From positions 30,012 to 94,011 of the forward strand of contig JBFLKU010000003.1 in NCBI GenBank assembly GCA_040883315.1: a stretch of DNA of 64,000 nt, given 5' to 3'. The DNA comes from Eubacteriales bacterium (lineage in GTDB: Bacteria > Bacillota > Clostridia > Christensenellales > UMGS416). A program made the translations under genes and the position numbers. The notes under the pieces were generated by a model. It was not told the origin of the DNA and searched no databases. It saw only the letters and a program-made list of their open reading frames with translations. This document shows, in pieces, positions 9,531-41,966 of the stretch. How positions within the stretch are numbered: the stretch's first letter is position 1; each line of letters begins with the position of its first letter.

Positions 9531-9549
9531 AATAAGGGGTTAACCCTTA
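9531..9549. terminator. bidirectional hairpin between the convergent HAD and MerR genes
   Basis: ATAAGGGgttaacCCCTTAT palindrome flanked by an A-run and a T-run. It overlaps the 3' end of the MerR gene. Confidence 0.55.
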
Positions 9550-10283
9550 TTTTTTATGTAGTTCTGTATTGATTCATTTATAAACTCGGCTAGATTTTCA
9601 CCGTGTTTGTCAATGTTCTTTTTGAATCTTTCATCGAATACATACATGTCTGCAAGCCCCAGCAATATTTCATCTGTACACTCATAAAAATTTTCGCTGA
9701 TGTGGCTTTGCCACTGCTGCACCAGTGTGTCCACGCTTTTGCATTTCGGCTTTTTGTTCATGCAGTCCGCAAAATCACTAAATAGTCTGTTCCAGTAGTC
9801 ATTTATTCTTTTCCAGTCCTGCTCTGTGAATTCGGCGGTCTTTTTATTGCTTTGTTTGTATGCATCTGTGTGTCCCCACCTTTGCTTTGCTTCTTCTTTG
9901 TATTTTTCTATATGTTGTTTAATTTCTGTCATATCAAACTCCTTTAAGTCTACTTTATTTGATTTTAGGTTGTCATCCAGCAGCGCAATTATTTTACCAA
10001 GCCTTTCTCTTTTCAAAACTAATAGTTCCCGATGCTTCTTTAGGGCATCTGCTGTGTCGTGGTTTGGATTTTCCATTATTTCTTTTATATCCTTTAGCGG
10101 GATATCGAGCTCTTTGAAAAATAGAATTTCCTGAAGCTTTTCAAGAGATGTATAATCATATTGCCTGTACCCATTGTCTGCGATGCTGCTTGGGCAAAGC
10201 AGACCTATTTCATCATAATAGTGCAGTGTCCGTACGCTTACACCACAGAGATTTGCTATTTGATTTATGGTTAATGGCTTCAT
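9540..10283 (-). CDS. MerR-family regulator with TipAS-type C-terminal domain (Mta/TipA-like)
   Basis: N-terminal HTH LTINQIANLCGVSVRTLHYYDEIGLL. Long helical C-terminal effector domain. Confidence 0.85.
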   Translation of the reverse strand: MKPLTINQIANLCGVSVRTLHYYDEIGLLCPSSIADNGYRQYDYTSLEKLQEILFFKELDIPLKDIKEIMENPNHDTADALKKHRELLVLKRERLGKIIALLDDNLKSNKVDLKEFDMTEIKQHIEKYKEEAKQRWGHTDAYKQSNKKTAEFTEQDWKRINDYWNRLFSDFADCMNKKPKCKSVDTLVQQWQSHISENFYECTDEILLGLADMYVFDERFKKNIDKHGENLAEFINESIQNYIKNKG

Positions 10284-10313
10284 ATGGGCAACCTTTCAGT
10301 TCGAATTAATTTC

Positions 10314-10344
10314 ATTATAAACTATTACGCAGCGTTAGTGTCAA
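10314..10344 (-). promoter_or_regulatory. MerR-type promoter with 19-nt spacer
   Basis: On the minus strand: TTGACA (10344-10339), a 19-nt spacer CTAACGCTGCGTAATAGTT with an imperfect dyad, then TATAAT (10319-10314). Confidence 0.55.
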
Positions 10345-10371
10345 CAATAATATAAAATAAAATATTCAAAC

Positions 10372-10400
10372 AAAAAAAGCTGCCTGCAAATGCAGGCAGC
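10372..10400 (-). terminator. intrinsic terminator after the MBL-rhodanese gene
   Basis: On the minus strand: GCTGCCTGCatttGCAGGCAGC followed by TTTTTTT. Confidence 0.8.
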
Positions 10401-10413
10401 TGGTAAATCGCTT

Positions 10414-11460
10414 TTAGCTTCTATATCCTATCATTCCGCCTTCTAGTACCTTTACTTTTTCAAATCCCTGGGATGATAATATCTGTGCGGCGGTTGTGGC
10501 TCTTGCTCCGGAGCGGCATATAGAGACAATGGTCTTGTCTTTATATGGTATTATTTCATCTAGTCGCTTGCTTAGCTGACCGACAGGAATATTAATTACT
10601 CCATCTATATGTCCCAGTGCGTCGTCCAGCTCCTCCGGCTCGCGCACATCCAAAAGCACAGGTGAATTTAATGATTCCAAAGCATATTTGTCTATGTATT
10701 CCACCTGAATGTCTGCAACGTCAGAAGCCATAGTTCCCTTCACCTCGCATGCTGGCACATCTGTGGGTATGAATGCAGCATCGGGGTCTGTTGAGCAGCT
10801 ATAGTTTGCTTTTAGCACGTCCTTCATCCAGTCGGCAGGTCCTAGCTTCAAATCGTTTATATAGGTTACGAAGTCGTTTTTGCTTTTGATGCGAAGGTGA
10901 GGGTTTTTTTCTCTCTGGTTGTCCAGATTGGATGGCACACGGCTTCTGTATTCATGAGCCGGGTATACCATCACATCGCCTGAAACATCATCTAGCCTTT
11001 GAAGGCTTTCCCAGTGTGCTGTGGCATCCCCGCCCGGCAAATCGTCTCTTCCTGCTCCGGCATCCTCCAGAAATAGAAAATCCCCTGTGAAAATCATATC
11101 GTCAAATAATAGCGATATAGAGTCTCTGGTGTGCCCGGGAGTCTCTAGAACCCTTGCTTTTTTGCCTGCGATCTCTATAATGTCGCCTTCTCTAACATGT
11201 GTCGTAACACACTTGGCAGGGGCTTTTTCATGCATTACGTATTCGCATCCTGTTGCCTGCACCAATGATGCCCCGGCTGATATATGGTCTGCATGGGTAT
11301 GGGTGTCTACAACGTGTGTTAATTTTAGCTTTCTGTCCGAAAGCAGTTTCAAATACTCCTCTGTATGTATAATTACCGGATCAATCAAAACGCATGTGTT
11401 ATCATCATTTGTCAGCAGATATGTCCAGCATGCACCGGGATTAAGTTTTTCAATATTCAT
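10414..11460 (-). CDS. metallo-beta-lactamase-fold protein fused to a C-terminal rhodanese domain (ETHE1/CstB-like architecture)
   Basis: HTHADH metal motif in the N-terminal ~230 aa. C-terminal rhodanese domain with active-site loop CRSGARAT. GGAGGA SD. Confidence 0.8.
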   Translation of the reverse strand: MNIEKLNPGACWTYLLTNDDNTCVLIDPVIIHTEEYLKLLSDRKLKLTHVVDTHTHADHISAGASLVQATGCEYVMHEKAPAKCVTTHVREGDIIEIAGKKARVLETPGHTRDSISLLFDDMIFTGDFLFLEDAGAGRDDLPGGDATAHWESLQRLDDVSGDVMVYPAHEYRSRVPSNLDNQREKNPHLRIKSKNDFVTYINDLKLGPADWMKDVLKANYSCSTDPDAAFIPTDVPACEVKGTMASDVADIQVEYIDKYALESLNSPVLLDVREPEELDDALGHIDGVINIPVGQLSKRLDEIIPYKDKTIVSICRSGARATTAAQILSSQGFEKVKVLEGGMIGYRS

Positions 11461-11469
11461 ATTTTCCTC

Positions 11470-12279
11470 CTAGCCTAGTCCAACATCTAAGCCCATCATA
11501 ACCATGAAACCGATAACCACGCCTATGGTGGCTATATCGGAGTGTCCTTGGTGAGCTTCAGGTATCAATTCCTCTGCCACAACATATATCATAGCACCTG
11601 CTGCAAAAGCCAAAGCGTATGGAAGGATCGGTCTGAATGTCAGCACTGCGATTGCTCCCAGTACGCCGGCAATAGGCTCCACCATGCCGGAGAGCTGACC
11701 CCAGAAAAAGCTTTTGCCTCGTGACATTCCTTCCCTTCGAAGCGGCACAGAAACCGCAGCACCCTCTGGGAAGTTTTGTATTCCGATACCTACAGCCAAG
11801 GCTACAGCACCTGCCAGCGTTGCTCCGCTGAAATTGGCACCAACAGCACCAAATGCCACACCCACAGCCAGACCTTCCGGTATGTTGTGAAGAGTTATTG
11901 CGCTGACTAAAAGAATGCTTTTTCGCCAGTTCGATGTTAGTCCCTCTTTTTGTGTTCCGTCAGGGGTCATATGCATGTGCGGCAGCAGCTTGTCTGCACT
12001 AAACAAAAAAGCACAACCCATTCCAAAGCCTACCAGCACAACAATCCAAGCTGTCTGCCCTGAAGCTTCTGACATAGAAACTGCAGGTGCCAACAGTGAG
12101 AAAAAGCTGGCAGCAATCATAACACCGCTTGCAAATCCCAGCATTCCATCCAGCACTTTATAATTTATTTTTTTAAAGAAAAAAACTATTCCTGCACCTA
12201 GCATTGTCACTCCCCATGTGAAGAGTGTTCCGAAAAGAGCTTGGATTACAGGTGGGAATTGTCTTAAAAATTCTAACAT
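11470..12279 (-). CDS. ZIP-family divalent metal transporter (ZupT-like)
   Basis: 269 aa with 8 predicted TM segments. Signature HNIPEGLAVG and NFPEGAAV. Ends 9 nt before the MBL-rhodanese gene. Confidence 0.85.
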   Translation of the reverse strand: MLEFLRQFPPVIQALFGTLFTWGVTMLGAGIVFFFKKINYKVLDGMLGFASGVMIAASFFSLLAPAVSMSEASGQTAWIVVLVGFGMGCAFLFSADKLLPHMHMTPDGTQKEGLTSNWRKSILLVSAITLHNIPEGLAVGVAFGAVGANFSGATLAGAVALAVGIGIQNFPEGAAVSVPLRREGMSRGKSFFWGQLSGMVEPIAGVLGAIAVLTFRPILPYALAFAAGAMIYVVAEELIPEAHQGHSDIATIGVVIGFMVMMGLDVGLG

Positions 12280-12310
12280 ATATTATTCCTCTTTATTGAT
12301 TTAATATAAT

Positions 12311-12336
12311 AAAAAAAGGCTAAGAAAACCTAGCCT
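12311..12336 (-). terminator. intrinsic terminator after the rubredoxin-like gene
   Basis: On the minus strand: AGGCTAGgttttCTTAGCCT (one mismatch) followed by TTTTTTT. Confidence 0.6.
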
Positions 12337-12348
12337 CTTTTAAAAGTC

Positions 12349-12684
12349 TTACCATTTTCCTTTTCCAACGTGTCCAGCAATTTCTGCCTTTGAGCGTTGT
12401 TTTATTACCCAAGCTTCATCTAATGCATTTTTAAATAATGCAACGCATGGAGGATCTAGATTGATCTCTATTCCTTCCAATGCTAATTGCTGGATTTTTG
12501 CAGCTAATCCTACAATCTCCATATGTATATCGTTAGTTCTGTCTGAAGCATATACTTTGTCTGAAGCTTCTTTGCTTAACTCTTCAAATTTCTCTTTTGG
12601 TGCACCGCATTTTGGGCATGAATCTGGTGCTTCTTCTCCCTCGTGAATATATCCGCATACTGTACATTTGAACAATTTTTTCAT
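12349..12684 (-). CDS. rubredoxin-fold protein with an uncharacterised helical C-terminal domain
   Basis: N-terminal CTVCGYIH...CPKCGAPKEKF (two CxxC knuckles). ~70-aa C-terminal extension of unknown family. Confidence 0.55.
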   Translation of the reverse strand: MKKLFKCTVCGYIHEGEEAPDSCPKCGAPKEKFEELSKEASDKVYASDRTNDIHMEIVGLAAKIQQLALEGIEINLDPPCVALFKNALDEAWVIKQRSKAEIAGHVGKGKW

Positions 12685-12805
12685 ACTTTCTTCTCCTTTG
12701 CATGTTTTTTATATATCTAATCATACCATATGAAAGTACTATTTACAATATACACCAAGGCTATATTGTTAAATCCATGCTAATTATTTGAAGTAAGATT
12801 ATCAA

Positions 12806-13141
12806 TTAATGGTCACATACATTGTCTCCATATTCCAGCTCGTCATTCAGATATTTCTCCACCAATATATCAGGTGCAATAGAGGGAGCACCTACGCAGA
12901 CCTTTATATTTCGTTCCGCAAAAAGGCCTTGGGCTCTCTGACCCATTCCTCCTGTTATAATCAGCTGCACTTGCTTTTCTCCTAGCCATTTTGGAAGAAG
13001 TCCAGGCTCATGTGGGGGAGGCGTTACTAGTTCATATTTTGTTATGGCATTGTTTTTGTCTGTTTCGCATATGTAGAATTGCTGACAGTGACCGAAGTGA
13101 TTACAGAGTTTGTTATTCTGTATTGGTATAGCTATTTTCAT
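12806..13141 (-). CDS. NifX/NifB-like (MTH1175-like, dinitrogenase FeMo-cofactor-binding fold) protein
   Basis: 111 aa. MKIAIPIQNNKLCNHFGHCQQFYI and IITGGMGQRA are typical of the family. Starts 4 nt after the upstream gene's stop. Confidence 0.8.
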   Translation of the reverse strand: MKIAIPIQNNKLCNHFGHCQQFYICETDKNNAITKYELVTPPPHEPGLLPKWLGEKQVQLIITGGMGQRAQGLFAERNIKVCVGAPSIAPDILVEKYLNDELEYGDNVCDH

Positions 13142-13144
13142 TTT

Positions 13145-14023
13145 CTACTCCTTGTTATTTATAATATTTATATATTTGTTCCACATTTCATTTATGGATT
13201 TCGAAGCTTCACTTTTGGAGAATTCGATTATGGTTTTTTTGTGTATCTGTGCATTTGTAATTTCCTGGTCATAAGGCACTTTCCCTATCAAAGGTATGTT
13301 TCGAGCTGTAAGCATTTTTGCAATTTCTGCAGTTACATCTTCGTTTATATCGTATTTGTTTATGCATACATAGGAGCTGATGGAAAAATGCTTTGCTAAA
13401 TCTAAAACTCTTTGCATGTCGTGGACTCCAGATACTGTCGGTTCGGTGACAACTATTACGGAATCAACTCCGGTCATAGATGCTATCACAGGGCATCCGA
13501 TTCCGGGAGGACCATCAATTACTATATAGTCGCTCTTTTGGCTTGAGGCTATTTCTCTTGCTTTTCTTCGCACTTCGCTGACTAGCTTGCCGGAATTTTC
13601 AGCGGCTATAGATAGCTTTGCATGCACCATAGACCCGAATCTGGTATCTGAAACATAGTAGTGTCCGCATAATGAAGGCACAAAATCTATAGCTTTTTCT
13701 TGGCACACCCATGTACACACGCCGCACCCTTCGCACATTATGGGGTCTACCATGTACTTATTGTCAGTTTTCTTTATCGCATCAAATCTACAGCTTTCTA
13801 GGCATATACCGCAGGATATGCATTGGTTTTCTATTATGTTGGCTGTATGCCCAGAGATAAACTCATACTTTTCTTTTGTTTCAGGCTTTAGTATCAGGTG
13901 CAGGTCGGCTGCATCCACATCGCAGTCTGCAAAAACTGAGTTATGAGATAGTGATGCAATTGCACCAGTGATGCTGGTTTTGCCTGTTCCGCCTTTGCCG
14001 CTGACTATCAATATCTCTTTCAT
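13145..14023 (-). CDS. MinD/ParA-type P-loop ATPase with inserted 2x[4Fe-4S] ferredoxin domain
   Basis: Deviant Walker A SGKGGTGKT. CISCGICLESC and CEGCGVCTWVC motifs. ATGA overlap with the upstream paralog. Confidence 0.8.
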   Translation of the reverse strand: MKEILIVSGKGGTGKTSITGAIASLSHNSVFADCDVDAADLHLILKPETKEKYEFISGHTANIIENQCISCGICLESCRFDAIKKTDNKYMVDPIMCEGCGVCTWVCQEKAIDFVPSLCGHYYVSDTRFGSMVHAKLSIAAENSGKLVSEVRRKAREIASSQKSDYIVIDGPPGIGCPVIASMTGVDSVIVVTEPTVSGVHDMQRVLDLAKHFSISSYVCINKYDINEDVTAEIAKMLTARNIPLIGKVPYDQEITNAQIHKKTIIEFSKSEASKSINEMWNKYINIINNKE

Positions 14024-14856
14024 GCTACTACCTCTTGGATGTAAGAAAGCATATTATTAAGCTGAGCTTTTAATGATGGTATTGCATTTAAGATGCTGTT
14101 TCCATTGGAATATGCTTTTGCAGCTGCCATATTTTCAGGGATTTCTAATAGTATTTTTATATGGTTTTTTGCACAATATTCATGTATTTGCTTGTATTCT
14201 TTTTTTGCACGATTTATTACCACGCCAAAGGGTGTTTTAAGCGATTTTATAGTATCTACAGTTATTATCAAATCATTTAAGCCAAAAGGAGAAGCCTCTG
14301 TAACGAGCACTATATAGTCAGCTCCATTAATCGCAGTAATAAGAGGACATGAACTGCCGGGCGGGCAATCGATGATATTTATTATACTATCATCTATCCT
14401 TCTTTTTACTGCACGAATTAATGGAGGTGACATAGCACGGCCAATATCCAGTCTGCCCTGTGTAAAGGAAAGAGATTTAGATTGGGATGCTATAATCTTG
14501 CCGATAGGCATGTCTTGCTCTGATATAGCATTTTGAGGACATATCATTTCACATCCACCACAACCATGACATAGCTCATCAAAAATCAAAACATTATCTT
14601 TCAGCACGGCTATAACGTTAAACTGGCATATTTCCTGGCACTTGCCACAAAAAATACATTTATCTATATCAACAGAAGGTATAGGTATATTTACAGTTTC
14701 CTCCTTCGTGTTTTCTAAATCCAAAAATAAATCCGCATTAGGCTCTTCCACGTCGCAGTCCAATAGCTGCACTTTTTCGTCAATAGCCAAGGCTAGAGCA
14801 ATAGATATTGTGGTTTTTCCTGTTCCGCCTTTTCCGGAGGCAATGGCTATTTTCAT
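14020..14856 (-). CDS. MinD/ParA-type P-loop ATPase with inserted 2x[4Fe-4S] ferredoxin domain (paralog)
   Basis: SGKGGTGKT, CIFCGKCQEIC and CHGCGGCEMIC. Start moved to the ATG at 14856 (MKIAIASG), 1 nt after the NifX-like stop. The track start at 14880 would overlap that gene. Confidence 0.8.
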   Translation of the reverse strand: MKIAIASGKGGTGKTTISIALALAIDEKVQLLDCDVEEPNADLFLDLENTKEETVNIPIPSVDIDKCIFCGKCQEICQFNVIAVLKDNVLIFDELCHGCGGCEMICPQNAISEQDMPIGKIIASQSKSLSFTQGRLDIGRAMSPPLIRAVKRRIDDSIINIIDCPPGSSCPLITAINGADYIVLVTEASPFGLNDLIITVDTIKSLKTPFGVVINRAKKEYKQIHEYCAKNHIKILLEIPENMAAAKAYSNGNSILNAIPSLKAQLNNMLSYIQEVVA

Positions 14857-14857
14857 G

Positions 14858-15220
14858 CTACACCCAATGGCCTTCGACATTAGCGTCTGCCATTGAATGC
14901 AATTTTCTGCTTTTATACTGCTTAATATTATACATGATAGTTCCGTCTATTCCGGAATACACTTTGATGCCGGACGCTGAGAGCACTTTATATGCTTTGG
15001 GTCCGCAGTTTATTGTAATCAAAATATCTGCTCCAGCTTTTATTATTGTCTGGGCGGACTGTATGCCGGCACCTTGAGAAGACTCCATATTCTGAATGTT
15101 TTCTACTATATCAAAACTCATAGAGTCAGAATCGATAATAACAAAGTTTTTGGATCGACCAAATGATTTGCTTATTTCATCTTCTAATATATTGCTGTTT
15201 GTTGGGATTACTATTTTCAT
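14858..15220 (-). CDS. NifX/NifB-like (MTH1175-like) protein
   Basis: 120 aa. MKIVIPT...SFGRSKNFVI...ITINCGPKA family pattern. Confidence 0.8.
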   Translation of the reverse strand: MKIVIPTNSNILEDEISKSFGRSKNFVIIDSDSMSFDIVENIQNMESSQGAGIQSAQTIIKAGADILITINCGPKAYKVLSASGIKVYSGIDGTIMYNIKQYKSRKLHSMADANVEGHWV

Positions 15221-15286
15221 TTTTGCTCCAATTGTCTTTTATATGTGAATAAGCAACCTAAAAAATTAAGTTACTTATTCAATAAA

Positions 15287-15553
15287 TTAAAGGTTGTTTA
15301 GTTGTTCATCTAGGATAGATAGATCTTTCTCTAAAGAGATTTTTCTTTGGTTAAGCATTTCTTTCTTTTGCTCGTCAGTTAGCTCTACTGCCGAAAAAAG
15401 TCTGCCCATACCTCGGCCTCTTCTGCAGTTGCGGCCGCTGCCCATTCCGCGACCCATTGAGAAGCTATCGGCCTCTGTTTTGCCACAGTATCCTAGTCCC
15501 CTGCCTGTTTGCATGCCTGCACCCATTGGTCCAGTTCCATTCATTCCTGGCAT
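15287..15553 (-). CDS. DUF5320 protein
   Basis: 88 aa. G/M/P-rich N-terminus MPGMNGTGPMGAGMQTGRGLGYCG followed by a coiled-coil tail. AAGGAGGAA SD. Confidence 0.7.
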   Translation of the reverse strand: MPGMNGTGPMGAGMQTGRGLGYCGKTEADSFSMGRGMGSGRNCRRGRGMGRLFSAVELTDEQKKEMLNQRKISLEKDLSILDEQLNNL

Positions 15554-15601
15554 AGTTTAGTTCCTCCTTGTGCTTTATTGACATATGCCCTTTACAACTA
15601 C

Positions 15602-15629
15602 ATTATACTCAATAAAAAACATATGTCAA
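15602..15629 (-). promoter_or_regulatory. SigA-type promoter of the DUF5320/NifX/MinD-Fdx operon
   Basis: On the minus strand: TTGACA (15629-15624), 16 nt, TATAAT (15607-15602). Confidence 0.6.
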
Positions 15630-15653
15630 CAAATATTTAGATAAATTATTTTG

Positions 15654-15682
15654 TTGACACCTTTTTGAGAGAGTGATATTAT
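15654..15682 (+). promoter_or_regulatory. SigA-type promoter P1 of the DUF134-mrp operon
   Basis: TTGACA (15654-15659), 17 nt, TATTAT (15677-15682) preceded by TGa. Confidence 0.55.
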
Positions 15683-15725
15683 GAAAAGCGATATAGGGCA
15701 TATGTTCATTATTCGAATTTACAAT

Positions 15726-15753
15726 TTGACATAAAGGCTATTTAATCTATAAT
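15726..15753 (+). promoter_or_regulatory. SigA-type promoter P2 of the DUF134-mrp operon
   Basis: TTGACA (15726-15731), 16 nt, TATAAT (15748-15753). Confidence 0.5.
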
Positions 15754-15804
15754 AATTATGTGAAAAAGAGTAAAAGCTCTATTCTGCAAATAAAGGAGTG
15801 AGAT

Positions 15805-16170
15805 ATGCCAAGACCGACAAAATGGAGAAAAGTATGCTATATGCCTCGCAACACAGTCTTTGGTCCTATGGACAAAAGGCAAGATTCTGAAACCATTACT
15901 ATGATGGTGGATGAATATGAAACTATTAGACTGATAGATTTAGAGGGGCTGACGCAGGAAGAATGCGCAGAAAGAATGAATGTGGCGCGCACTACTGTGC
16001 AGCGAATATACACAATAGCCAGAAATAAACTGGCAAAATCCTTGGTAAACGGAAGTGTGCTGAAGATAGAGGGCGGTGAATACAAGCTGTGCACCGAAGA
16101 AGAAAGAATGAATGGATGCGGCAGATGCAAAAGAGGCCACTATGGGCAGATGACAGAAAATAATAATTAA
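15805..16170 (+). CDS. DUF134 (UPF0251) predicted DNA-binding protein with C-terminal Cys cluster
   Basis: [15 protein letters not shown]-terminus. Sigma-70 region-4-like [25 protein letters not shown]-terminal C...CGRC. Confidence 0.8.
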
Positions 16171-16197
16171 TTATTAAATAAACTTTTGGAGAAACAA

Positions 16198-17028
16198 ATG
16201 AGCGAAACATGCAACAATGACTGCAGCAGCTGTGCAGAAAGCTGCTCTGATAGAAAAGAAGAAAACACAGATTTTTCAGCAAAGCTAAATGATATGAGCA
16301 AGGTGGGAAAGGTCTACGCAGTAATCAGCGGAAAAGGCGGAGTAGGAAAATCCATGATTACCTCCATGATGGCTGCGGCTATGAACAAAAACGGATATAA
16401 GACAGCTGTTTTAGATGCAGATATAACAGGGCCGTCTATACCAAAGCTATTTGGTGTGGAAGCCAAAGCTATGCAGAATGAATTTGGCATATTGCCGTCA
16501 ATCAGCAAAAACGGAACTAAAATAATGTCTGTAAACCTGCTGCTGGAAAACAACACCGACCCTGTAGTATGGAGAGGACCAATAATAGCAAACGTAGTGA
16601 AACAATTCTGGACAGATGTGGTGTGGGGAGATGTAGACTATATGTTTATAGATATGCCTCCAGGAACAGGTGACGTGCCGCTGACAATATTTCAGTCTCT
16701 GCCTGTAGATGGGCTGATAGTTGTCACTTCGCCGCAGGAGCTGGTATCTATGATAGCCAGAAAAGCTGTGAGAATGGCAGAGATGATGAATGTGCCGATT
16801 ATAGCAATAGTCGAAAATATGTCATACTATACATGCCCGGACTGCGGAAATAAGCACAATATATTCGGGGAAAGCAAAATTGATGAAGTGGCAAAGGAGC
16901 ATTCCATTGATGTAGTTGCAAAGCTGCCGATCGATTCTGATATCGCTGCATTATCAGACAAAGGCGAAATTGAAAAATATGAAAGCGATGCGCTGAACGA
17001 AATAGTAGAAATAATCGAAAAAAAATAA
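16198..17028 (+). CDS. Mrp/NBP35/ApbC-family Fe-S cluster carrier ATPase
   Basis: Walker A SGKGGVGKS and CPDC bridging-cluster motif. Cys-rich N-terminus CNNDCSSCAESC. The track start at 16186 is TTG. The ATG at 16198 has a GGAGA SD 5 nt upstream. Confidence 0.85.
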   Translation: MSETCNNDCSSCAESCSDRKEENTDFSAKLNDMSKVGKVYAVISGKGGVGKSMITSMMAAAMNKNGYKTAVLDADITGPSIPKLFGVEAKAMQNEFGILPSISKNGTKIMSVNLLLENNTDPVVWRGPIIANVVKQFWTDVVWGDVDYMFIDMPPGTGDVPLTIFQSLPVDGLIVVTSPQELVSMIARKAVRMAEMMNVPIIAIVENMSYYTCPDCGNKHNIFGESKIDEVAKEHSIDVVAKLPIDSDIAALSDKGEIEKYESDALNEIVEIIEKK

Positions 17029-17052
17029 TAATATTTAAAATAGGAACTAAAG

Positions 17053-17079
17053 CACTTGCTAATGGGCAGGTGTTTTTTT
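17053..17079 (+). terminator. intrinsic terminator after mrp
   Basis: CACTTGCtaatggGCAGGTG (one mismatch) followed by TTTTTTT. Confidence 0.65.
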
Positions 17080-17129
17080 GTGCCTAAATGTCATTAAATT
17101 AAAGATTTCAGATATATATGGGTATATTT

Positions 17130-17158
17130 TTGGTGCAGAATAGATAGTATCATATAGT
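17130..17158 (+). promoter_or_regulatory. putative promoter of the ccdA-tlpA-msrAB-TCS operon
   Basis: TTGGTG, 17 nt, TATAGT. Confidence 0.4.
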
Positions 17159-17183
17159 TACAGAACAAAAGGAGAATAGGAAA

Positions 17184-17849
17184 ATGACAGAATTATATAT
17201 ATTAGGAGTATTTATCGGAGGAATAGCATCCTTCTTCTCACCGTGCATAGTGCCGGTACTCCCTGTATACGTTTCAATACTAGCAGGTGATGAAACTAAG
17301 GAAAAAGCCAGAGTGAGAGCTGTAGCGAGGACTATGTTATTTGTTCTAGGACTCTCGGTAGCTTTTGTGACAATGGGATTTGGAGTAGGTGCACTGGGCA
17401 AAGTACTATATAGCAAGACATTTATATATGTAAGCGGTGCAATTGTCATTCTGCTGGGACTATATCAAATGGGTCTGTTTAAGCTGAAGTTTTTAAACAG
17501 GCAGATGAAGATGAATGTTAATGCCAACAAAAAGACAGGATACTTTAGCGTATTTTTGCTGGGATTGGTTTTCAGCTTCGGATGGACACCATGCGTAGGG
17601 CCAATACTGGCGGCGGTTCTTTCGCTGACAGCCAGCCAAGGCAATGCGGCATACGGCGGATTTATGATGTTTGTTTACTCGCTGGGACTGGCAATTCCCT
17701 TTTTGGTGATATCGATATTCTCGGCAACCATACTGACAAAGGTAAAGGCCATAAACAAACATTTAGACAAAATAAAATTTATCGGTGGACTAATTATAGT
17801 GATTATGGGTATCCTGCTGATGACTGGAAATTTAAACTTATTACTATAG
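17184..17849 (+). CDS. ccdA: cytochrome c biogenesis protein CcdA (DsbD-family thiol-disulfide electron transporter)
   Basis: 221 aa, 6 TM segments. Conserved FFSPCIVPVLP and FGWTPCVGP cysteine motifs. Confidence 0.85.
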   Translation: MTELYILGVFIGGIASFFSPCIVPVLPVYVSILAGDETKEKARVRAVARTMLFVLGLSVAFVTMGFGVGALGKVLYSKTFIYVSGAIVILLGLYQMGLFKLKFLNRQMKMNVNANKKTGYFSVFLLGLVFSFGWTPCVGPILAAVLSLTASQGNAAYGGFMMFVYSLGLAIPFLVISIFSATILTKVKAINKHLDKIKFIGGLIIVIMGILLMTGNLNLLL

Positions 17850-17885
17850 ACATTGAATGTATATCAAAGACATAAGGAGAGAAAA

Positions 17886-18500
17886 ATGAAAAAATTAATT
17901 ATATTATTATCTGTTGTGGCAGCTTCAGCATTGGTGCTGGCAGCATGCGCACCAAAGGCTATGGATGAAGTGAATACAGAAGATAGCATGACACCAGACA
18001 CCCAAGACACAATGGAAGACAACACGATGGAAGAACAAGAGATGACAAAAGAGGATACTAGCATGGAAGAAGAGGACATGAGTCCGAATTTTCTAGATGT
18101 CACTATGATGGATGTAGATGGAAATGAGTGGAATCTAGCAGAGCTAGGCGACGAAGCAGTGGTTAAGGTATGGGCATCGTGGTGCTCTATATGCCTGGCA
18201 GGAATGGATGAATACAATACTTTCGCCGGTGAATATACAGACGCAAAGGTATTGACAGTGGTATCGCCCGGAATGCTGGGTGAGCAAAGCAAGGAAGACT
18301 TTGTAAGCTGGTTTAAATCGCTGGACGGAGTGGAAAACATTGTGGTTATTCTGGATGAAGACGGACTTTTGATTAAGAACCTTGGCATCAGAGGATTTCC
18401 TACATATGTTTACCTGAACTCAAATGGAAGAGCTGACAGCATTGCAGTGGGACATCAGCAAACAGCTGACGTAGTGGCAAAGCTGGAATCTATCCAGTAA
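17886..18500 (+). CDS. TlpA/ResA-like thioredoxin-fold lipoprotein
   Basis: Lipoprotein signal [21 protein letters not shown]. Acidic linker. CXXC site WASWCSIC. Start moved to the ATG at 17886, which has an AAGGAGA SD. Confidence 0.8.
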
Positions 18501-18510
18501 AGGAGATATT

Positions 18511-19620
18511 ATGAAGTATGCACTAGTAGCAATTGCTATTGTTATAGTGGCAATAGCAGGAGTGATATGGCTGACACCAAGCAAAGATGCTGCAGCTATT
18601 GCTGCGACAGAGCAGGACAGCAAAGAAGAAATGGTATACAATGAAGATGATGTTCGTGAGATATACTTGGCAGGAGGCTGTTTCTGGGGACTGGAGGAAT
18701 ACTTCTCCAGAGTGGAAGGCGTGGTAGACGCAACAGTGGGCTACGCCAACGGAAACACAGAAAACCCAACATACAAGGAAGTATGCTATGACAATACAGG
18801 ACATGCAGAGACAGTGCATGTGATGTATGACAGCTCGGTGATAAACCTGACAGAGGTTTTGAAATATTACTTTAGAGTGGTGGACCCCACCAGTCTGAAC
18901 AAGCAGGGAAATGATGTGGGAACACAATACAGATCCGGAATATACTACACAAATGAAGACGACAGGCAAGTGATACTATATGCCATGGAAACAGAGCAAA
19001 AGAAGCATGACAAAGAGCTGGTGGTGGAAGTAGAGCCATTAGACGGATATTATCTGGCAGAGGAGTATCATCAGGATTATTTGAAAAAGAATCCAAACGG
19101 ATACTGCCATATCAGCGTGGACTACGCCGAGGTGCCGCTAGAAAAACCTGTATTGAAAACGGAGGGAATTATGATAGACGAAAGCAAATATCAAAAACCT
19201 AGTGACGAAGAACTAAAAGAAAAATTAACACCGCTTCAATATGATGTGACACAAACAGGAGCAACTGAGAGAGCATTTGGCAATGAATACTATGACAACT
19301 ATGCAGAAGGAATTTATGTAGACGTTGTGACTGGTGAACCGTTATTTTCATCAAATGACAAATACGATTCTGGATGCGGATGGCCAAGCTTCACCAAGCC
19401 TATTGTGCCCGAAGTTGTTGAAGAATTTTCAGATACATCATATAATATGATTAGAACAGAGGTAAGAAGCCGTGCAGGTGATTCTCACCTAGGTCATGTT
19501 TTTGAAGATGGACCAAAGGACTCCGGCGGATTGAGATACTGCATCAACAGTGCATCAATCAGGTTTATACCGGTGGAAGAAATGGAAGCAGAAGGATATG
19601 GATACCTTCTAGAGGATTGA
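18511..19620 (+). CDS. msrAB: membrane-anchored bifunctional methionine sulfoxide reductase MsrA/MsrB
   Basis: N-terminal TM anchor. MsrA motif GGCFWG and MsrB motif RYCINS with CGWPSF. 369 aa. Confidence 0.92.
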
Positions 19621-19627
19621 GGACAAA

Positions 19628-20389
19628 ATGTTTAGTCTGTTAATAGTAGATGATGAGCCGATTGTTAGAAACGGAATAAAAAATTTAATAGATTTTCAAG
19701 AGCTTAATATCTCTAATGTGCTTGAGGCCGTCAATGGGCTTCAGGCACTAGAGATAGTGAAAAGAAATGATATTGATATTGTACTAGCAGATATAAACAT
19801 GCCCAAAATGAACGGACTGGAATTTGCAAAGAGTGCGAAAGAACATAAAAAAGACATATTAATAGCACTGGTGACAGGATATGATTATTTTGACTACGCT
19901 GTATCTGCACTAAGATACGGAGTAGATGAATACATTCTGAAGCCTGTATCCAAAAAGGATATCGAAAAGGTGCTGACACAGATGATAGACAAAATAAAGG
20001 ATACAAAAGTAGAAAGCGAAATAAAAAACATATCACAGCCAAAAGGCGATGGAATAGAGGACGGAAACTATAAAAAGCAAATAGCAAGGATTATTGAAGA
20101 AAAACTGTCTGACAGCAGTTTTTCTTTGAGCATGTTGTCGGATGAAATCAACCTGAGTACAGGATATCTAAGCAGGATATTCAAGCAATACTTTGGGCTG
20201 CCATTTCGCGACTACATACTCAAGGAAAGACTAGATAAAAGTAAAATACTTTTATTATCCAGCGACATGAAAATATATGAAATATGCGAAAATGTAGGAT
20301 TTGAAGACCCAAATTATTTCAGCACTATATTTAAAAAATCCACAGGGTATTCGCCAAATGGATACAGAAAGCACGTGGAAAATGATTAA
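19628..20389 (+). CDS. response regulator with AraC-type HTH output (YesN-like)
   Basis: REC domain (DDEP...D in ADINMP...K) plus a C-terminal AraC HTH. Starts 7 nt after the msrAB stop. Confidence 0.85.
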   Translation: MFSLLIVDDEPIVRNGIKNLIDFQELNISNVLEAVNGLQALEIVKRNDIDIVLADINMPKMNGLEFAKSAKEHKKDILIALVTGYDYFDYAVSALRYGVDEYILKPVSKKDIEKVLTQMIDKIKDTKVESEIKNISQPKGDGIEDGNYKKQIARIIEEKLSDSSFSLSMLSDEINLSTGYLSRIFKQYFGLPFRDYILKERLDKSKILLLSSDMKIYEICENVGFEDPNYFSTIFKKSTGYSPNGYRKHVEND

Positions 20390-22082
20390 GAAACTGAACA
20401 AAATAAAAGTACAGATATCGTTTTTTTATTCGATTATTGCACTAATTGCTATAGCAATAATCGGGATGATACTGTTTTTTGCATTTTCAAATATACTTAT
20501 CGATCAGTCGCTGAATCAGGCGAAGATATCCACAGAAAACAGCGGTAGTTATATTAATGCATATATAGACAAAATATACGGAATCTCTCGCTTGATAGTA
20601 AATGACAGCAAGCTGAAGGATTATATAATTAATCAGAATGACGATCAAGAAGACAAGATATTGAATGACATAAAAAATGTTTTGGCTGGTGACGAGTTTA
20701 TTAAATCCATAATAATAGTCACATACGACGGCAGGATAATAAGCAATGAAGAAAACTTGACTATGGAAATGTCGAATGACATGATGGAAACGGACTGGTA
20801 TCAAAAGGCTACCGATGCTATGCCGTATTTGTCATCTACCAGAATGAATGAATTCACGATGGATAAGGACTCGTGGGTAATATCTATCAGCACAGAAATT
20901 GTGGATGAAAGCGGCAGCAATTTGGGTGTTATGCTGGTGGATATAGACTATCAGTTTGTAGAGAACCATCTTTTCAGAATGGATAGCAGCGAAGATACAG
21001 ATGTCTTTATATTCGACAGCGGCAATTGCCTAGTATACCATAAGGATACATCATATTTTTCCGATGGAGAAAAAAGAGAATGTCTGGTGGATGAGACAAT
21101 AGACAACAAAGAATTTGACAGCAAAACCAACACAGCAACATATAGATATAATATTGAAAAAGCAGACTGGACATTAACTAGCGTAACGAAGCTGACACAG
21201 CTGGAAAACATGAAAAATGACCTAATTAAGGACATAGTGCTGGTTAGCCTGCTTCTGATAGTGCTGGTAGTGCTGGCAAGCAATATGCTGGCAGGCAGAA
21301 TAACACGCCCCATAAATAGGCTGGAAAAAGCAATGGAAACAGATGCCGGCAAAATAGTGGATATTGAAGATGGGTTTGCGTCGTGTGACGAAGTGAGAAG
21401 CCTGACCATACACTACAACAATATGATACAAAGGGTAAACGAACTGCAGCTAGAAAACATTGACAAGGAAAGAAGAGTGCGAGAAAGCGAGATAGAGGCA
21501 CTCACCAGCCAGATTAATCCACACTTTTTGTATAACACACTTGATACTATTTTGTGGATGGCGGAGTATAAAGACACTGAAGGTGTAGTGGATATGGTGA
21601 AAGCGCTAGGTCAGTTTTTCAGACTGTCACTAAGCCGAGGCGAACCATACGTATCTATTGAGGATGAAATAAAGCATGTGAAAGAATATCTTTATATCCA
21701 AAAGAAAAGATATGGAGAAAAGCTGACATACAGTTTTGACCTAGACAAAAGCATAATGGACGTAAAAGTGCCGAAGATAATATTGCAGCCGATAGTAGAA
21801 AATGCACTTTACCACGGGATAAAGGAGCTAGACACACCAGGGCATATAAAAATAAAATCCACAAAGGAAGATGGATTTATAAAGTTTATAATTTCGGATA
21901 ATGGTGTGGGATTTGAGGTAGAAAATCTAAATGAACAAAGCGACAAATTGAAACTATCGGGAGTAGGCATAAAAAACGTGGATGAAAGGCTTAAGCTGCA
22001 CTATTGTGACCAGTGCGGAGTGACGATAGAAAGTAAAATAGGAGAGGGCACTGTTGTTACGCTTAGGATAAATATCACATAG
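20382..22082 (+). CDS. sensor histidine kinase (YesM-like, His_kinase/HATPase_c) with extracytoplasmic sensor domain
   Basis: Two TM segments flank a ~270-aa external domain. HAMP domain, H-box NPHFLYNTL and ATPase domain. Start moved to the ATG at 20382, which overlaps the RR stop by 8 nt. Confidence 0.85.
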   Translation: MIKKLNKIKVQISFFYSIIALIAIAIIGMILFFAFSNILIDQSLNQAKISTENSGSYINAYIDKIYGISRLIVNDSKLKDYIINQNDDQEDKILNDIKNVLAGDEFIKSIIIVTYDGRIISNEENLTMEMSNDMMETDWYQKATDAMPYLSSTRMNEFTMDKDSWVISISTEIVDESGSNLGVMLVDIDYQFVENHLFRMDSSEDTDVFIFDSGNCLVYHKDTSYFSDGEKRECLVDETIDNKEFDSKTNTATYRYNIEKADWTLTSVTKLTQLENMKNDLIKDIVLVSLLLIVLVVLASNMLAGRITRPINRLEKAMETDAGKIVDIEDGFASCDEVRSLTIHYNNMIQRVNELQLENIDKERRVRESEIEALTSQINPHFLYNTLDTILWMAEYKDTEGVVDMVKALGQFFRLSLSRGEPYVSIEDEIKHVKEYLYIQKKRYGEKLTYSFDLDKSIMDVKVPKIILQPIVENALYHGIKELDTPGHIKIKSTKEDGFIKFIISDNGVGFEVENLNEQSDKLKLSGVGIKNVDERLKLHYCDQCGVTIESKIGEGTVVTLRINIT

Positions 22083-39959: not shown

Positions 39960-41966
39960 TTAAATTGTAGAATTGAATATATACATTATGTCGTTCTTGC
40001 TTATTGGTTTATAGAAATAATATCCTTGGAAAAGGTTACATCCGTATTCTGTCAGCAGGCGCAATTGGTCTTCTGTTTCAACACCTTCAGCTACCAGCTC
40101 ATAGTTGTTCTTTGTAGATATTTCTACCAGCATCTTTGTGATGGACAAACTGATTGCACTGGTCATGATGTTATCAACGAATGATTTATCCAGTTTGATT
40201 TCGTCAAAGCTGATTGTATGCAGCTTAGACAGTGTGGAATATTCTGTACCAAAGTCGTCCATAGAGATTAGGCAGCCGGCTTCTTTTATTTCTTGAACTA
40301 CCTTCAGAGATCTTGTGAAGTCTCCTTCGAAGAATGACTCTGTAACTTCTATGTTTATTACGCCTCTTGGTATATTGTATCTTTTCATCAGCTGTGCCAG
40401 AACAGTAGTAAACTCATCGTCAAATAGCTGCTGAGGAGACACGTTGATTGAAATACTAATTGGATTATTTACACAGTATCTAGTTTTTATAAAGTCATTG
40501 TAGTCTTTAAACACAGCTTCTATTACCATGTATGCAAATTCATGAACTATTGACATACGCTCAATACGATTGATGAAATACCATGGAGAAAGTATACCTT
40601 TTTCTGGGTGATTCCATCTTGCCAAAGCTTCTAGCTTTGCGATTTTTTCCTTTTTGAAGTCAACAATCGGCTGATAATAAAGTATGAATTCATTATCATA
40701 AAAAGCTTTCTCTATTTCGTTTTCCCATCTGTGCTCTTCCACTATGTCGTCCACCATCTTTTGGTCGAATATACATAGCTCGTTTTTGCCTATTTTAGGT
40801 GCATTGGAGTTGGCGATTTCAGAGTACATTATTATCTCATCTATACTTGCAGAGTTCAGCGGGGCATATGCGATACCTGCACTAATCATCAGGTTATAGA
40901 TACCACCTCTAATCAGGGATGCTTGCTTAATAAATTTTCTTGCAGCATTCTCTATTTGTGTCTCCACAGTATATGGCATAACTACCATGAAATCACCGTC
41001 ACCAGTTTTAGCAACAAGTGCATTGTTTGGTGAATACTCTTTAAGAATGGTTGCAAATATTTTTATACAGTCATCAAATGCAGTCTGACCGTAAATATCC
41101 TTGGTCTCTTTGATATTTTGAATTGTCAGGGTCATAACTCCGTATTGGTTTGATGAAATATCCAGAGATTTCATACCAGTAATCAATCCGTCTCTGTTCA
41201 GCAAAGTGGTCAAGTGGTCGTGTGTTGCCAGATATTGAAGTCTTATTTCGTTTTTTGCTTCTTCTGTAACGTCACGCAGGAATACTATCATTCCCTTATC
41301 CATATCAGATTTGTCTATTGGGCTGATTGTCATATTCATTGTCAGCTCTTTGCCGGATTCGGTTGCAATCTTAAGGGGAAGATTTTTTACGGTAACGCCT
41401 TTTCTAGCCTTTGCCACTTCGTATGCTACGCATGAAGAGAAGTTTCCACCTGTGGCTATGCCTTTTACAGTGGACGGGAATTCTGTTCTCAATGTATCCT
41501 TTGCAGGGCATTGTGCGTCTGTGCACTTGGTTCCAGATGTTTTAAAGCAAACCACGTTGTGAAGCTTTTTACCTAGGATTTCCTGCTCTTTCACTTCAAA
41601 CAAATCAAGAACGGCAGAGTTTATAAATGTTATATTACCATTTTTATTTAATCCAATAATAGGATCGACAATACTTTGCACTATTTGCGATGAGTATGCT
41701 CCGCCTCCACGCCTAGCTTTATTGTGAAGTTTCCCATTGAATGCTACTAAAAGAATAAATATCAATGTGATGGCTATAATTAATGGAATTACAACCCTTA
41801 GCGGAACGGAATCATCCAAGCTCAAATTGCTTAGAATATCCATAAATCCATTACTAGTATCAGGAGCCATAGTGCTTGCCGCATATGCAACAGCGCTGAC
41901 GCCATATGCTACTAGTAATGTTAACATGAATACTATAGCTACTACATACTTTTTTCCCTTTTTCAT
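39960..41966 (-). CDS. membrane-anchored PAS / degenerate GGDEF / EAL protein (likely c-di-GMP phosphodiesterase)
   Basis: Two N-terminal TM segments, then a PAS domain. The GGDEF position reads GDGDF. EAL motifs are intact (EALARW, DDFGTEYS, KLDKSF, EGVE). Confidence 0.85.
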   Translation of the reverse strand: MKKGKKYVVAIVFMLTLLVAYGVSAVAYAASTMAPDTSNGFMDILSNLSLDDSVPLRVVIPLIIAITLIFILLVAFNGKLHNKARRGGGAYSSQIVQSIVDPIIGLNKNGNITFINSAVLDLFEVKEQEILGKKLHNVVCFKTSGTKCTDAQCPAKDTLRTEFPSTVKGIATGGNFSSCVAYEVAKARKGVTVKNLPLKIATESGKELTMNMTISPIDKSDMDKGMIVFLRDVTEEAKNEIRLQYLATHDHLTTLLNRDGLITGMKSLDISSNQYGVMTLTIQNIKETKDIYGQTAFDDCIKIFATILKEYSPNNALVAKTGDGDFMVVMPYTVETQIENAARKFIKQASLIRGGIYNLMISAGIAYAPLNSASIDEIIMYSEIANSNAPKIGKNELCIFDQKMVDDIVEEHRWENEIEKAFYDNEFILYYQPIVDFKKEKIAKLEALARWNHPEKGILSPWYFINRIERMSIVHEFAYMVIEAVFKDYNDFIKTRYCVNNPISISINVSPQQLFDDEFTTVLAQLMKRYNIPRGVINIEVTESFFEGDFTRSLKVVQEIKEAGCLISMDDFGTEYSTLSKLHTISFDEIKLDKSFVDNIMTSAISLSITKMLVEISTKNNYELVAEGVETEDQLRLLTEYGCNLFQGYYFYKPISKNDIMYIFNSTI

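Follow-up and report, generated by a model that had tools for sequence, protein, structure and literature searches.

The closest described counterpart of the locus reported here is the orange-protein (ORP) locus of Desulfovibrio vulgaris Hildenborough, orp5-orp4-orp3 / orpR / orp7-orp8-orp9 (DVU2103-DVU2109), in which Orp5 is a homologue of a [2Fe-2S]-binding protein. The ORP system is among the best-conserved 'anaerobe-specific' gene sets, and its regulation is known for Desulfovibrio only (OrpR, sigma54). OrpR is limited to the delta-Proteobacteria and was added onto an older, possibly archaeal ORP system (PMC8359166). We analyzed a stretch of 64,000 nucleotides from a Eubacteriales bacterium (GenBank assembly GCA_040883315.1, contig JBFLKU010000003.1, positions 30,012 to 94,011), which we call the window; coordinates given without a locus name are positions in it. 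At 12806-17028 it carries what is, judged by its genes, an ordinary member of the known and widespread ORP kind. As an explanation of the whole, we consider it rather probable that this metal-cluster gene set is under the control of a DUF134 protein that acts as repressor and autorepressor at CATATG palindromes.

A first-pass annotation of this DNA had proposed seven open reading frames (ORFs) in two divergent operons. All seven are real, lie exactly where that annotation placed them and retain the domains that it assigned to them, as judged by Pfam and NCBIfam profiles:

15553..15287, minus strand: DUF5320 gene, first gene of the minus-strand operon (Pfam PF17253, 5e-20).
15220..14858, minus strand: NifX-like protein of 120 amino acids (aa), orange-protein/MTH1175 type, Orp8-like (Nitro_FeMo-Co, PF02579, 4e-20).
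14880..14020, minus strand: MinD-like P-loop ATPase, paralogue b, with a 2x[4Fe-4S] ferredoxin insert (CbiA/ParA; Orp3/Orp4 type).
14023..13145, minus strand: MinD-like P-loop ATPase, paralogue a, with a 2x[4Fe-4S] ferredoxin insert (CbiA/ParA; Orp3/Orp4 type).
13141..12806, minus strand: stand-alone Di-Nase (Nitro_FeMo-Co) protein, 111 aa (Nitro_FeMo-Co, 7.5e-17).
15805..16170, plus strand: DUF134 (UPF0251) helix-turn-helix (HTH) protein, 121 aa, candidate regulator (PF02001, 8e-21).
16198..17028, plus strand: Mrp/NBP35-type Fe-S carrier ATPase, the P-loop half of MrpORP (PF10609, 1.6e-88).

The resemblance to the ORP locus, which had been proposed, is supported by the relatives of these proteins, by the type of the ATPases and by very wide synteny. 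The window and D. vulgaris share divergent operons, a pair of MinD-like ATPases with ferredoxin motifs, a protein of the orange-protein/MTH1175 type, a carrier of the Mrp/NBP35 type and a Di-Nase domain in which CxHFGHC, TPPPHxPGxxP and CDH occur, and both sets are anaerobe-specific. The two loci differ in several respects. D. vulgaris uses sigma54 promoters and OrpR, whereas the window has consensus sigma70 promoters and DUF134. The two halves of MrpORP are split between opposite ends of the divergon in the window, the operons partition the genes differently, and the window has just two Nitro_FeMo-Co genes. A physical five-protein complex, with a Mo/Cu thiometallate cluster on the orange protein, also belongs to the D. 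vulgaris type.

The absence of a sigma54 activator, which had also been pointed out, was confirmed: no ORF resembling a sigma54 enhancer-binding protein (EBP) was found in the 64 kb and no usable GG-N10-GC promoter in the intergenic region, so that the sigma54 promoters and PAS-AAA+ OrpR that lie between the D. vulgaris operons are both absent. The further idea that DUF134 and DUF5320 represent an unusual substitution peculiar to Firmicutes did not stand up, as both occur regularly in ORP clusters of many phyla. This became apparent in a comparison of about 165 related loci, whose ORFs were labelled with profiles seeded from the window proteins, samples being confirmed by Pfam.

An alignment of the ATPase, used to scan a single genome of each species, gave a first set of 80 loci. 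It spans more than 15 phyla, including Desulfobacterota, Bacillota, Planctomycetota, Omnitrophota, Armatimonadota and Acidobacteriota, and also includes Ignavibacteria, Dehalococcoidia, Verrucomicrobiota and five archaeal lineages. All 29 of these loci that have at least 4 kb of flank on both sides contain two or more ATPases and a NifX-like gene; DUF5320 is present in 21 and Mrp in 14. As to regulators, 12 have a sigma54 EBP and 10 have DUF134, two of them having both, and 9 have neither within 5 kb. The second set consists of 80 metagenome loci retrieved with a Clostridia-type DUF134 alignment, 41 of them unique and with enough flank. ORP-type genes occur in 39 of the 41 (NifX-like in 37, both ATPases in 28, Mrp in 27), and DUF5320 lies directly upstream of DUF134 in 21. 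The commonest order, on a single strand, is DUF5320, DUF134, NifX, ATPase, ATPase, Mrp, NifX. Across loci DUF134 and Mrp are frequently direct neighbours, and DUF134 adjoins ORP genes in Desulfobacterota, Ignavibacteria, Dehalococcoidia, Methanocellaceae, Methanosarcinales and Thermoplasmata.

DUF134 and DUF5320 are thus regular parts of ORP clusters in Bacillota, Desulfobacterota, Dehalococcoidia, Ignavibacteria and archaea, and outside the delta-Proteobacteria ORP clusters commonly carry DUF134. This set of regulator and accessory genes is the common one and probably the older, and the deltaproteobacterial sigma54 activator is the lineage-specific version. Nor does DUF5320 take the place of some other component, as had been supposed, since it is also found in sigma54-type loci (L028, L029, L030, L033, L055 and L166). 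In L166, from the Desulfovibrionales member Desulfothermus okinawensis, the order is a PAS-sigma54 activator, a 192-aa gene with no Pfam match, DUF5320, NifX, ATPase, ATPase, NifX. DUF5320 thus takes the first position ahead of the ORP-type gene in this sigma54-type locus, and position together with this related locus suggests that Orp7 is a DUF5320 protein. The two divergent operons of the window are as first described, yet most other loci are co-directional; the divergent layout and the flanking genes are common to the close relatives L081-L083, and the divergon is a rearranged version of the common co-directional cluster. L083 is otherwise collinear with the window locus, with an ARMT1-like/DUF89 gene (damage-control phosphatase family; L083:1943-2833) between the orange-protein-type gene and the first ATPase.

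The 251-bp intergenic region between DUF5320 and DUF134 contains three matches to sigma70 promoters, two of them 12/12 and one 11/12, and three operator-like sites:

15602..15629, minus strand: promoter of the DUF5320 operon, TTGACA (15629..15624), 16 nt, TATAAT (..15602), 12/12.
15654..15682, plus strand: promoter P2, TTGACA (15654), 17 nt, TATTAT (15682), with TG, 11/12.
15726..15753, plus strand: promoter P1, TTGACA (15726), 16 nt, TATAAT (15753), 12/12.
15616..15629, no strand assigned: operator-like site O1, AAAACATATGTCAA, overlapping the -35 box of the minus-strand promoter.
15578..15591, no strand assigned: operator-like site O2, TTGACATATGCCCT (reverse complement AGGGCATATGTCAA), over the predicted transcription start.
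15694..15707, no strand assigned: operator-like site O3, AGGGCATATGTTCA, just downstream of the P2 -10 box.

The ORP genes here are therefore predicted to be transcribed divergently from consensus sigma70, not sigma54, promoters. The hexamers of the DUF5320-operon promoter and P1 are conserved in L081-L083, and in the alignment with these loci the conserved islands are the three CATATG sites and the promoter hexamers, while the flanking DNA diverges. O1 corresponds to a family-wide 'site A', TATTGACATATG. O2 lies 38 bp from O1 and ends 25 nt ahead of the DUF5320 start codon. The -35 box of P2 starts at a distance of 40 bp from O3, which matches TGRRCATATGYYCA at 13 of 14 positions. No clear operator overlaps P1. 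The sequence GGGCATATG occurs three times in the 64 kb, two of these occurrences being in this intergenic region in inverted orientation; the other operator matches in the window (40862, 43932, 50197 and 32038) are at chance level, and those at 40862 and 50197 fall inside long ORFs. A riboswitch or small RNA as the source of the conserved intergenic blocks is unsupported, as an Rfam scan of 12000-17400 returned nothing credible (best E-value 0.39). Separately, a weak inverted repeat, TTTGACATAA ... TTATGTGAAA, flanks P1 at 15725-15765; its spacing is non-canonical, and it could be a decayed operator pair.

The putative operator, TGR(R)CATATG(Y)YCA, is conserved well beyond the close relatives. 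More distant loci carry a palindrome of 14 bp, placed 24-46 bp ahead of the DUF134 start codon and in many cases between a -35 and a -10 box:

Upstream of DUF134, Smithella: TGAGCATATGCTTA.
Upstream of DUF134, Desulfobacterales: TGAACATATGTTCA.
Upstream of DUF134, Dehalococcoidia: TGGACATATGTCCA.
Upstream of DUF134, Ignavibacteria: TGAGCATACGCTCA.

Two archaeal loci (L008 and L080) have weaker, imperfect palindromes upstream of DUF134. We scored matches to TGRRCATATGYYCA at 12 or more of the 14 positions and took the expectation from background density. Of the 92 regions that precede gene runs with DUF134, 37 have a match, compared with an expectation of 1.5% (binomial p ~1e-42); the test partly reuses the loci from which the motif came, and some loci are near-duplicates. 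Among 24 runs from loci that have a sigma54 activator and no DUF134, there is no match.

The metagenome set is independent of the derivation of the motif, and 55 of its 68 unique upstream regions contain a CATATG site. The site A consensus in this set, AGTTATTGACATATGtCa.AAA...gTAtAAT, overlaps the -35 box and spacer and is followed by a site B (TGgCATATGTCAAtAA), with a CATATG-to-CATATG spacing of 38-40 bp in 25 of 36 pairs. Read on the minus strand, O1 and O2 of the window are an exact instance of this site A/site B module. The variant of the operator also tracks the DUF134 subfamily: the form TGRCATATGYCA accompanies the metagenome set, which had been retrieved by the Clostridia-type patterns AR[TA]TVQ[RKN]IY and [ED]EYETIRL, and the form TGRRCATATGYYCA accompanies recognition helices of the SRxTFxRIL type. 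As an observation on its own, a minimal DUF134-Mrp-NifX trio without ferredoxin-ATPases is found in Paenibacillus macerans (L085:8001-9589), with a two-site operator upstream (7841 and 7880) and a rhodanese/TusA/DsrE/TauE sulfur-handling cluster adjoining it.

The DUF134 protein scores 74.9 bits against a Pfam gathering threshold of 27, and both the MPRPxKxR N-terminus and the HTH core are present; additional, weaker matches are to sigma70_r4-like families. The DUF134 family is large (at least 5,588 clusters). A PDB sequence search gave no solved structure for it. In an AF2 model (pLDDT, the predicted local distance difference test score, 79), compared by Foldseek, the HTH core is superimposable on region 4, the -35-binding part, of extracytoplasmic function (ECF) sigma factors (0.5-0.8 A over ~47 residues), and half of the putative DUF134 site is the sigma70 -35 hexamer TTGACA. 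It was the HTH core alone that matched; the small beta-sheet around it had no Foldseek match. With 121 aa and a region-4-like HTH only, the protein lacks the region 2 expected of a sigma-70 or ECF sigma factor. Since it lacks region 2 and the family is present in archaea, the model points to a transcription factor, not a sigma factor. Four cysteines, C11, C54, C105 and C108, are retained by 114-119 of 120 proteins from the subfamily to which the window protein belongs, while other subfamilies have a zinc-ribbon-like tail, no Cys or a fused Nitro_FeMo-Co domain. This last architecture is seen in L056:665-1462, where DUF134 and Nitro_FeMo-Co form a single polypeptide directly after a stand-alone DUF134 gene; it is possibly a natural 'sensor-fused' regulator. 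The near-invariant Cys set, this fusion and the frequent adjacency of DUF134 and Mrp are hints of a sensor function. No study of the function of DUF134 came up in the searchable literature, where searches for DUF134, UPF0251, COG1342 and DUF5320 gave incidental mentions only. The combination of a conserved operator and DUF134 control, which differs from the sole characterised system, is apparently not described in that literature and would be new.

On the reading that we prefer, by analogy with the Desulfovibrio system, the ORP proteins would form a complex that is required only under strongly reducing, anaerobic conditions. The Mrp ATPase would assemble [4Fe-4S] clusters and transfer them to the ferredoxin-ATPases (again by Desulfovibrio analogy; PMC6345978, PMC8359166), and the small NifX-family proteins would hold or pass on labile Fe-S or thiometallate clusters. 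DUF134 would be the dedicated ORP transcription factor, probably dimeric, placing its sigma-region-4-like HTH on TGR(R)CATATG(Y)YCA; the candidate palindrome for the dimer is TTGACATATGTCAA. That it would be a repressor and an autorepressor is suggested by the positions of the sites, on a -35 box, on a transcription start and just past the P2 -10 box. DUF134 would repress the DUF5320 operon via O1 (-35 box) and O2 (transcription start) and its own P2 via O3, with the operator-free P1 supplying basal DUF134 expression. More speculatively, the four Cys might bind an Fe-S cluster or metal and so report the output of the ORP system or the redox state, and the adjacent Mrp or NifX proteins might deliver that cluster or metal to DUF134, giving IscR-like feedback or redox control.

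Two kinds of described regulators invite comparison. Like OrpR (PMC8359166), DUF134 would be a dedicated regulator inside the orp divergon that controls both operons, and its Cys set may be an analogous sensor, speculatively the functional counterpart of the [4Fe-4S]-PAS domain of OrpR. However, OrpR is an AAA+ activator of sigma54 promoters that needs IHF, and its fold and mechanism are unrelated to those of DUF134, a protein of 121 aa with a sigma-region-4-like HTH; the overlap of its putative sites with sigma70 promoters suggests repression. The proposed logic also resembles that of IscR and SufR, in that a small Cys-containing HTH repressor lies beside carrier genes and is autoregulated at promoter-overlapping palindromes. 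Here too the folds differ: IscR and SufR have an Rrf2 or ArsR winged helix, while DUF134 has the sigma-region-4-like HTH, a putative cluster and a Cys set that is not family-wide.

In addition to the reuse of loci in the enrichment test, several points weigh against DUF134 control. It is solely by co-occurrence and position that DUF134 is linked to the palindrome. DUF134 lies within 5 kb in just about a third of the ATPase-centred loci. P1 is operator-free, hence the regulation of DUF134 and mrp may be partial. A spacing of 38-40 bp is a non-integral number of helical turns. The Cys set is subfamily-specific, and a universal Fe-S sensor is unlikely because among the remaining DUF134 proteins some have zinc-ribbon-like tails and some lack Cys altogether. 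Finally, the literature has yet to settle what the ORP system itself does biochemically.

It is conceivable that the CATATG palindromes are bound by another, trans-encoded regulator of the CRP/FNR, LexA or ArgR type and that DUF134 is an accessory DNA-binder or a partner of Mrp. We consider this improbable. The 5-4-5 layout of FNR-type boxes (TTGAT-N4-ATCAA-like) can be read in TTGAC-ATAT-GTCAA; a few sites (L056, L099 and L005) read GAACATATGTTC and match the Gram-positive SOS-box consensus, the LexA-type box being GAAC-N4-GTTC; and the link between palindrome and DUF134 is indirect. However, the best-conserved part of the palindrome is its centre, CATATG, not the outer arms, which is the reverse of FNR and CRP sites, and GAAC-N4-GTTC occurs in none of 92 sites of the independent metagenome set. 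Moreover, no transcription factor gene other than DUF134 is shared by the loci with sites in the different phyla. Where DUF134 heads its own unit, the site is directly upstream of it, the motif variant follows its subfamily, and the sites are absent from sigma54-only loci. The LexA/Cheo, FNR/CRP, ARG and NrdR boxes and the Rex and Fur-family motifs were rejected on context and on architecture: the operator is conserved at its centre and varies in its arms, its layout is 7-0-7, and two sites stand 38-40 bp from each other.

Alternatively, DUF134 itself might bind the sites as an activator, or as a surrogate for sigma region 4 that recruits or replaces part of RNA polymerase at -35-like hexamers, which we regard as quite improbable. 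The structural identity of its HTH with sigma region 4 and the -35 hexamer TTGACA in half of the palindrome would suit this role, as would the centre of O3, which is ~60 bp upstream of the predicted P1 start, the classic position of a class I activator. Against this, the promoters already have a perfect sigma70 consensus and an activator would normally be unneeded; sites on a -35 box and +1, or between the -35 and -10 boxes, are at typical repressor positions; DUF134 is without region 2; and DUF134 with similar upstream palindromes occurs in archaea (L008 and L080), which have no sigma factors.

The ATPases of the minus-strand operon bear on a different kind of explanation. Both adjacent genes encode GKGGTGKT and two CxxCxxCxxxC motifs each, as Orp3 and Orp4 do (CIFCGKCQEIC and CHGCGGCEMIC in paralogue b), and the start of paralogue a overlaps the stop of paralogue b in an ATGA at 14020-14023, just as the first-pass annotation had described them. 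In addition to the eight ferredoxin Cys, paralogue a has the invariant C34 and C177. Cys177 sits seven residues past the Walker B aspartate; it resembles the switch II cluster ligand of NifH and, speculatively, may mark an inter-subunit cluster. In the AF2 model of paralogue a (pLDDT 89) the core is nearest to MinD and FlhG, then NifH, while the ferredoxin insert is present in no solved structure in this structural comparison. Pfam also reports weak Fer4_NifH matches.

This similarity of the core to MinD and FlhG is one reason to ask if the module serves mainly cell division or positioning, with MinD/ParA-like ATPases that place the septum or a polar complex, as was first proposed for D. vulgaris; the others are the morphological defects of the D. 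vulgaris orpR mutant and the location of MrpORP at the poles (PMC6345978, PMC8359166). The possibility that these are genuine MinD or ParA proteins is countered by NCBIfam equivalog models, against which they score 71-77 bits for MinD (cut-offs 201.75 and 212.9) and 41-58 bits for ParA (cut-off 180), far under what is required. Because of these scores and the ferredoxin insert, the ATPases are of the Orp3/Orp4 type and are not partition ATPases; their likeness to MinD is one of core fold only. They carry the 2x[4Fe-4S] insert and extra invariant Cys, every partner gene encodes a cluster-binding or carrier protein, and neither the ORF list nor Pfam reveals minC, minE or parB in the locus. A role mainly in division is therefore very improbable.

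For the 120-aa NifX-like protein, a PDB sequence search puts the Desulfovibrio gigas orange protein (2WFB, 4.3e-16) first among the solved relatives and MTH1175 (1EO1, 1.8e-13) second, in agreement with the family to which the NifX-like ORFs had been assigned. The second NifX-like gene can be specified further. Its 111-aa product is nearest in structure to TM1816 (PDB sequence search), covers positions 265-365 of the NCBIfam model NF041136 (MrpORP) at 128.7 bits and contains CNHFGHCQ, TPPPHEPGLLP and a terminal CDH. CxHFGHC, TPPPHxPGxxP and CDH are the motifs published for MrpORP's Di-Nase domain (PMC6345978), and the gene is the stand-alone counterpart of this C-terminal domain. It is hardly credible that these genes serve the maturation of a nitrogenase-type cofactor as NifX/NafY/NifB-like carriers and a NifH-like ATPase, as might be thought from the Pfam family name 'dinitrogenase iron-molybdenum cofactor', the weak Fer4_NifH matches and NifH among the structural neighbours, given that the small proteins group with ORP, MTH1175 and TM1816 and not with NifX or NafY, that no nif structural genes adjoin the cluster and none were noted in the 165 related loci (where no systematic search for them was made), and that the lineages of these loci are largely not known as diazotrophs.

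The other half of MrpORP is encoded at the opposite end of the divergon. Its longest ORF, 16186..17028, has a TTG start and 280 aa (an exact-sequence look-up of this ORF gave no match), but the ATG at 16198, with GGAG 7 nt upstream, is the more likely start. The protein has the deviant Walker A motif GKGGVGKS (aa 49-56) and the CXXC motif CPDC (aa 217-220) typical of the Mrp domain of ORP loci, and an N-terminal CNNDCSSCAESC. It covers positions 1-240 of NF041136 at 329.5 bits. The equivalog cut-off of this model is 450 bits, which neither half reaches because the halves are separate genes, although both carry the published MrpORP motifs. MrpORP (NF041136; PMC6345978) is one polypeptide, whereas in the window it is split into two genes on opposite strands, with an extra N-terminal Cx3Cx2Cx3C on Mrp. 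Mrp-NifX fusions occur in 17 related loci, and the fused domain is always of the Di-Nase type. The extra Cx3Cx2Cx3C (16210-16245) is reminiscent of the N-terminal cluster site of eukaryotic Nbp35.

DUF5320 passes its Pfam gathering threshold easily (72.9 bits vs 27), and its position is kept in L081-L083 as well as in the 21 DUF134-centred loci mentioned above. By composition, the N-terminal 55 aa are cationic and Gly/Arg/Met-rich, with an isoelectric point (pI) of 11.3 and 2 Cys, and the C-terminal part is acidic, helical and coiled-coil-like. A described protein with a similar combination is IssA, for thioferrate storage in Pyrococcus furiosus (PMC5524996), which combines an MTH1175-type IPR003731 domain with a disordered segment that is cationic and Gly/Arg-rich. 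The window instead has its cationic segment on a separate protein, which is encoded beside the MTH1175-type gene and also has a coiled-coil tail. The covalent cationic, Gly-rich tail that defines the IssA type is absent from the window, and fused forms exist elsewhere. Speculatively, DUF5320 might be an IssA-like cationic tail supplied in trans to the MTH1175-type protein (PMC5524996), a link suggested by segments resembling DUF5320 that are fused to NifX-like domains in L022, L032, L038 and L071. It is important to note that thioferrate and nanoparticles are features of IssA, the likeness of the window being one of genes alone. Two of the fused proteins (L022:7626-8519 and L032:1170-2162) have the architecture Nitro_FeMo-Co, DUF5320-like linker, Nitro_FeMo-Co, so that a single chain unites the two NifX-like types with the cationic segment.

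The operator, the promoter layout and the motif variants of the subfamilies make the function of DUF134, the ORP signal in Clostridia and methanogen relatives, and regulon membership directly testable. DUF5320 and the separate Di-Nase protein are ordinary ORP components and should guide reconstitution. A much wider proposal, which we hold to be unlikely as a whole, is that DUF134 proteins are ancient repressors of archaea and bacteria that sense clusters or redox state, have a free-standing sigma-region-4-like HTH as their basis and act at inverted -35-like hexamers, that Mrp and NifX carriers load and unload them in an IscR-like loop, and that ORP together with DUF5320 constitutes a distinct, anaerobe-specific route of Fe-S/thiometallate storage and delivery.

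Three further features lie at the ends of the locus:

12684..12349, minus strand: rubredoxin-like gene (PF21349, 7e-17), CxxC...CxxC, then a 75-aa tail.
12341..12312, minus strand: intrinsic-terminator-like hairpin, 13-bp stem and T run, which ends the minus-strand unit.
17052..17079, plus strand: putative terminator after the Mrp gene, GCACTTGC, taatgg, GCAGGTGT, T7 (found by eye, low confidence, and unreported by the terminator scan).

The rubredoxin-like gene probably closes the minus-strand operon, as the strong terminator-like hairpin follows right after it. In its product the RUBY_RBDX knuckle is recognisable at residues 5-34 only, and the remaining ~75 residues matched no Pfam family. 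Relatives of this gene lie downstream of ORP clusters in L081 and L082 (directly), L150 and L152.

A metal/sulfur theme had been seen in the neighbouring genes. It is conserved only in part: it holds for the close relatives L081-L084, and in the distant loci MBL-rhodanese (MBL, metallo-beta-lactamase), ZupT or rubredoxin-like neighbours are sporadic. Downstream of the terminator at 12312-12341, the minus strand (9540-12279) encodes a ZupT-type ZIP metal importer, an MBL-fold/rhodanese fusion and a MerR/TipAS-family regulator, a trio that is also present in L081. Larger MBL-rhodanese proteins lie 5-6 kb from the ORP clusters of several Desulfobacterota and Phycisphaerae loci (L002, L007, L034, L055 and L058). 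On the other side, after Mrp, the plus strand (17184-19620) encodes a CcdA/DsbD-type membrane protein, a thioredoxin-like lipoprotein and a fused MsrA-MsrB, which looks like an extracytoplasmic operon for methionine-sulfoxide repair. This arrangement is kept in L081-L084, with an AraC-type response regulator and a histidine kinase downstream (19628-22082).

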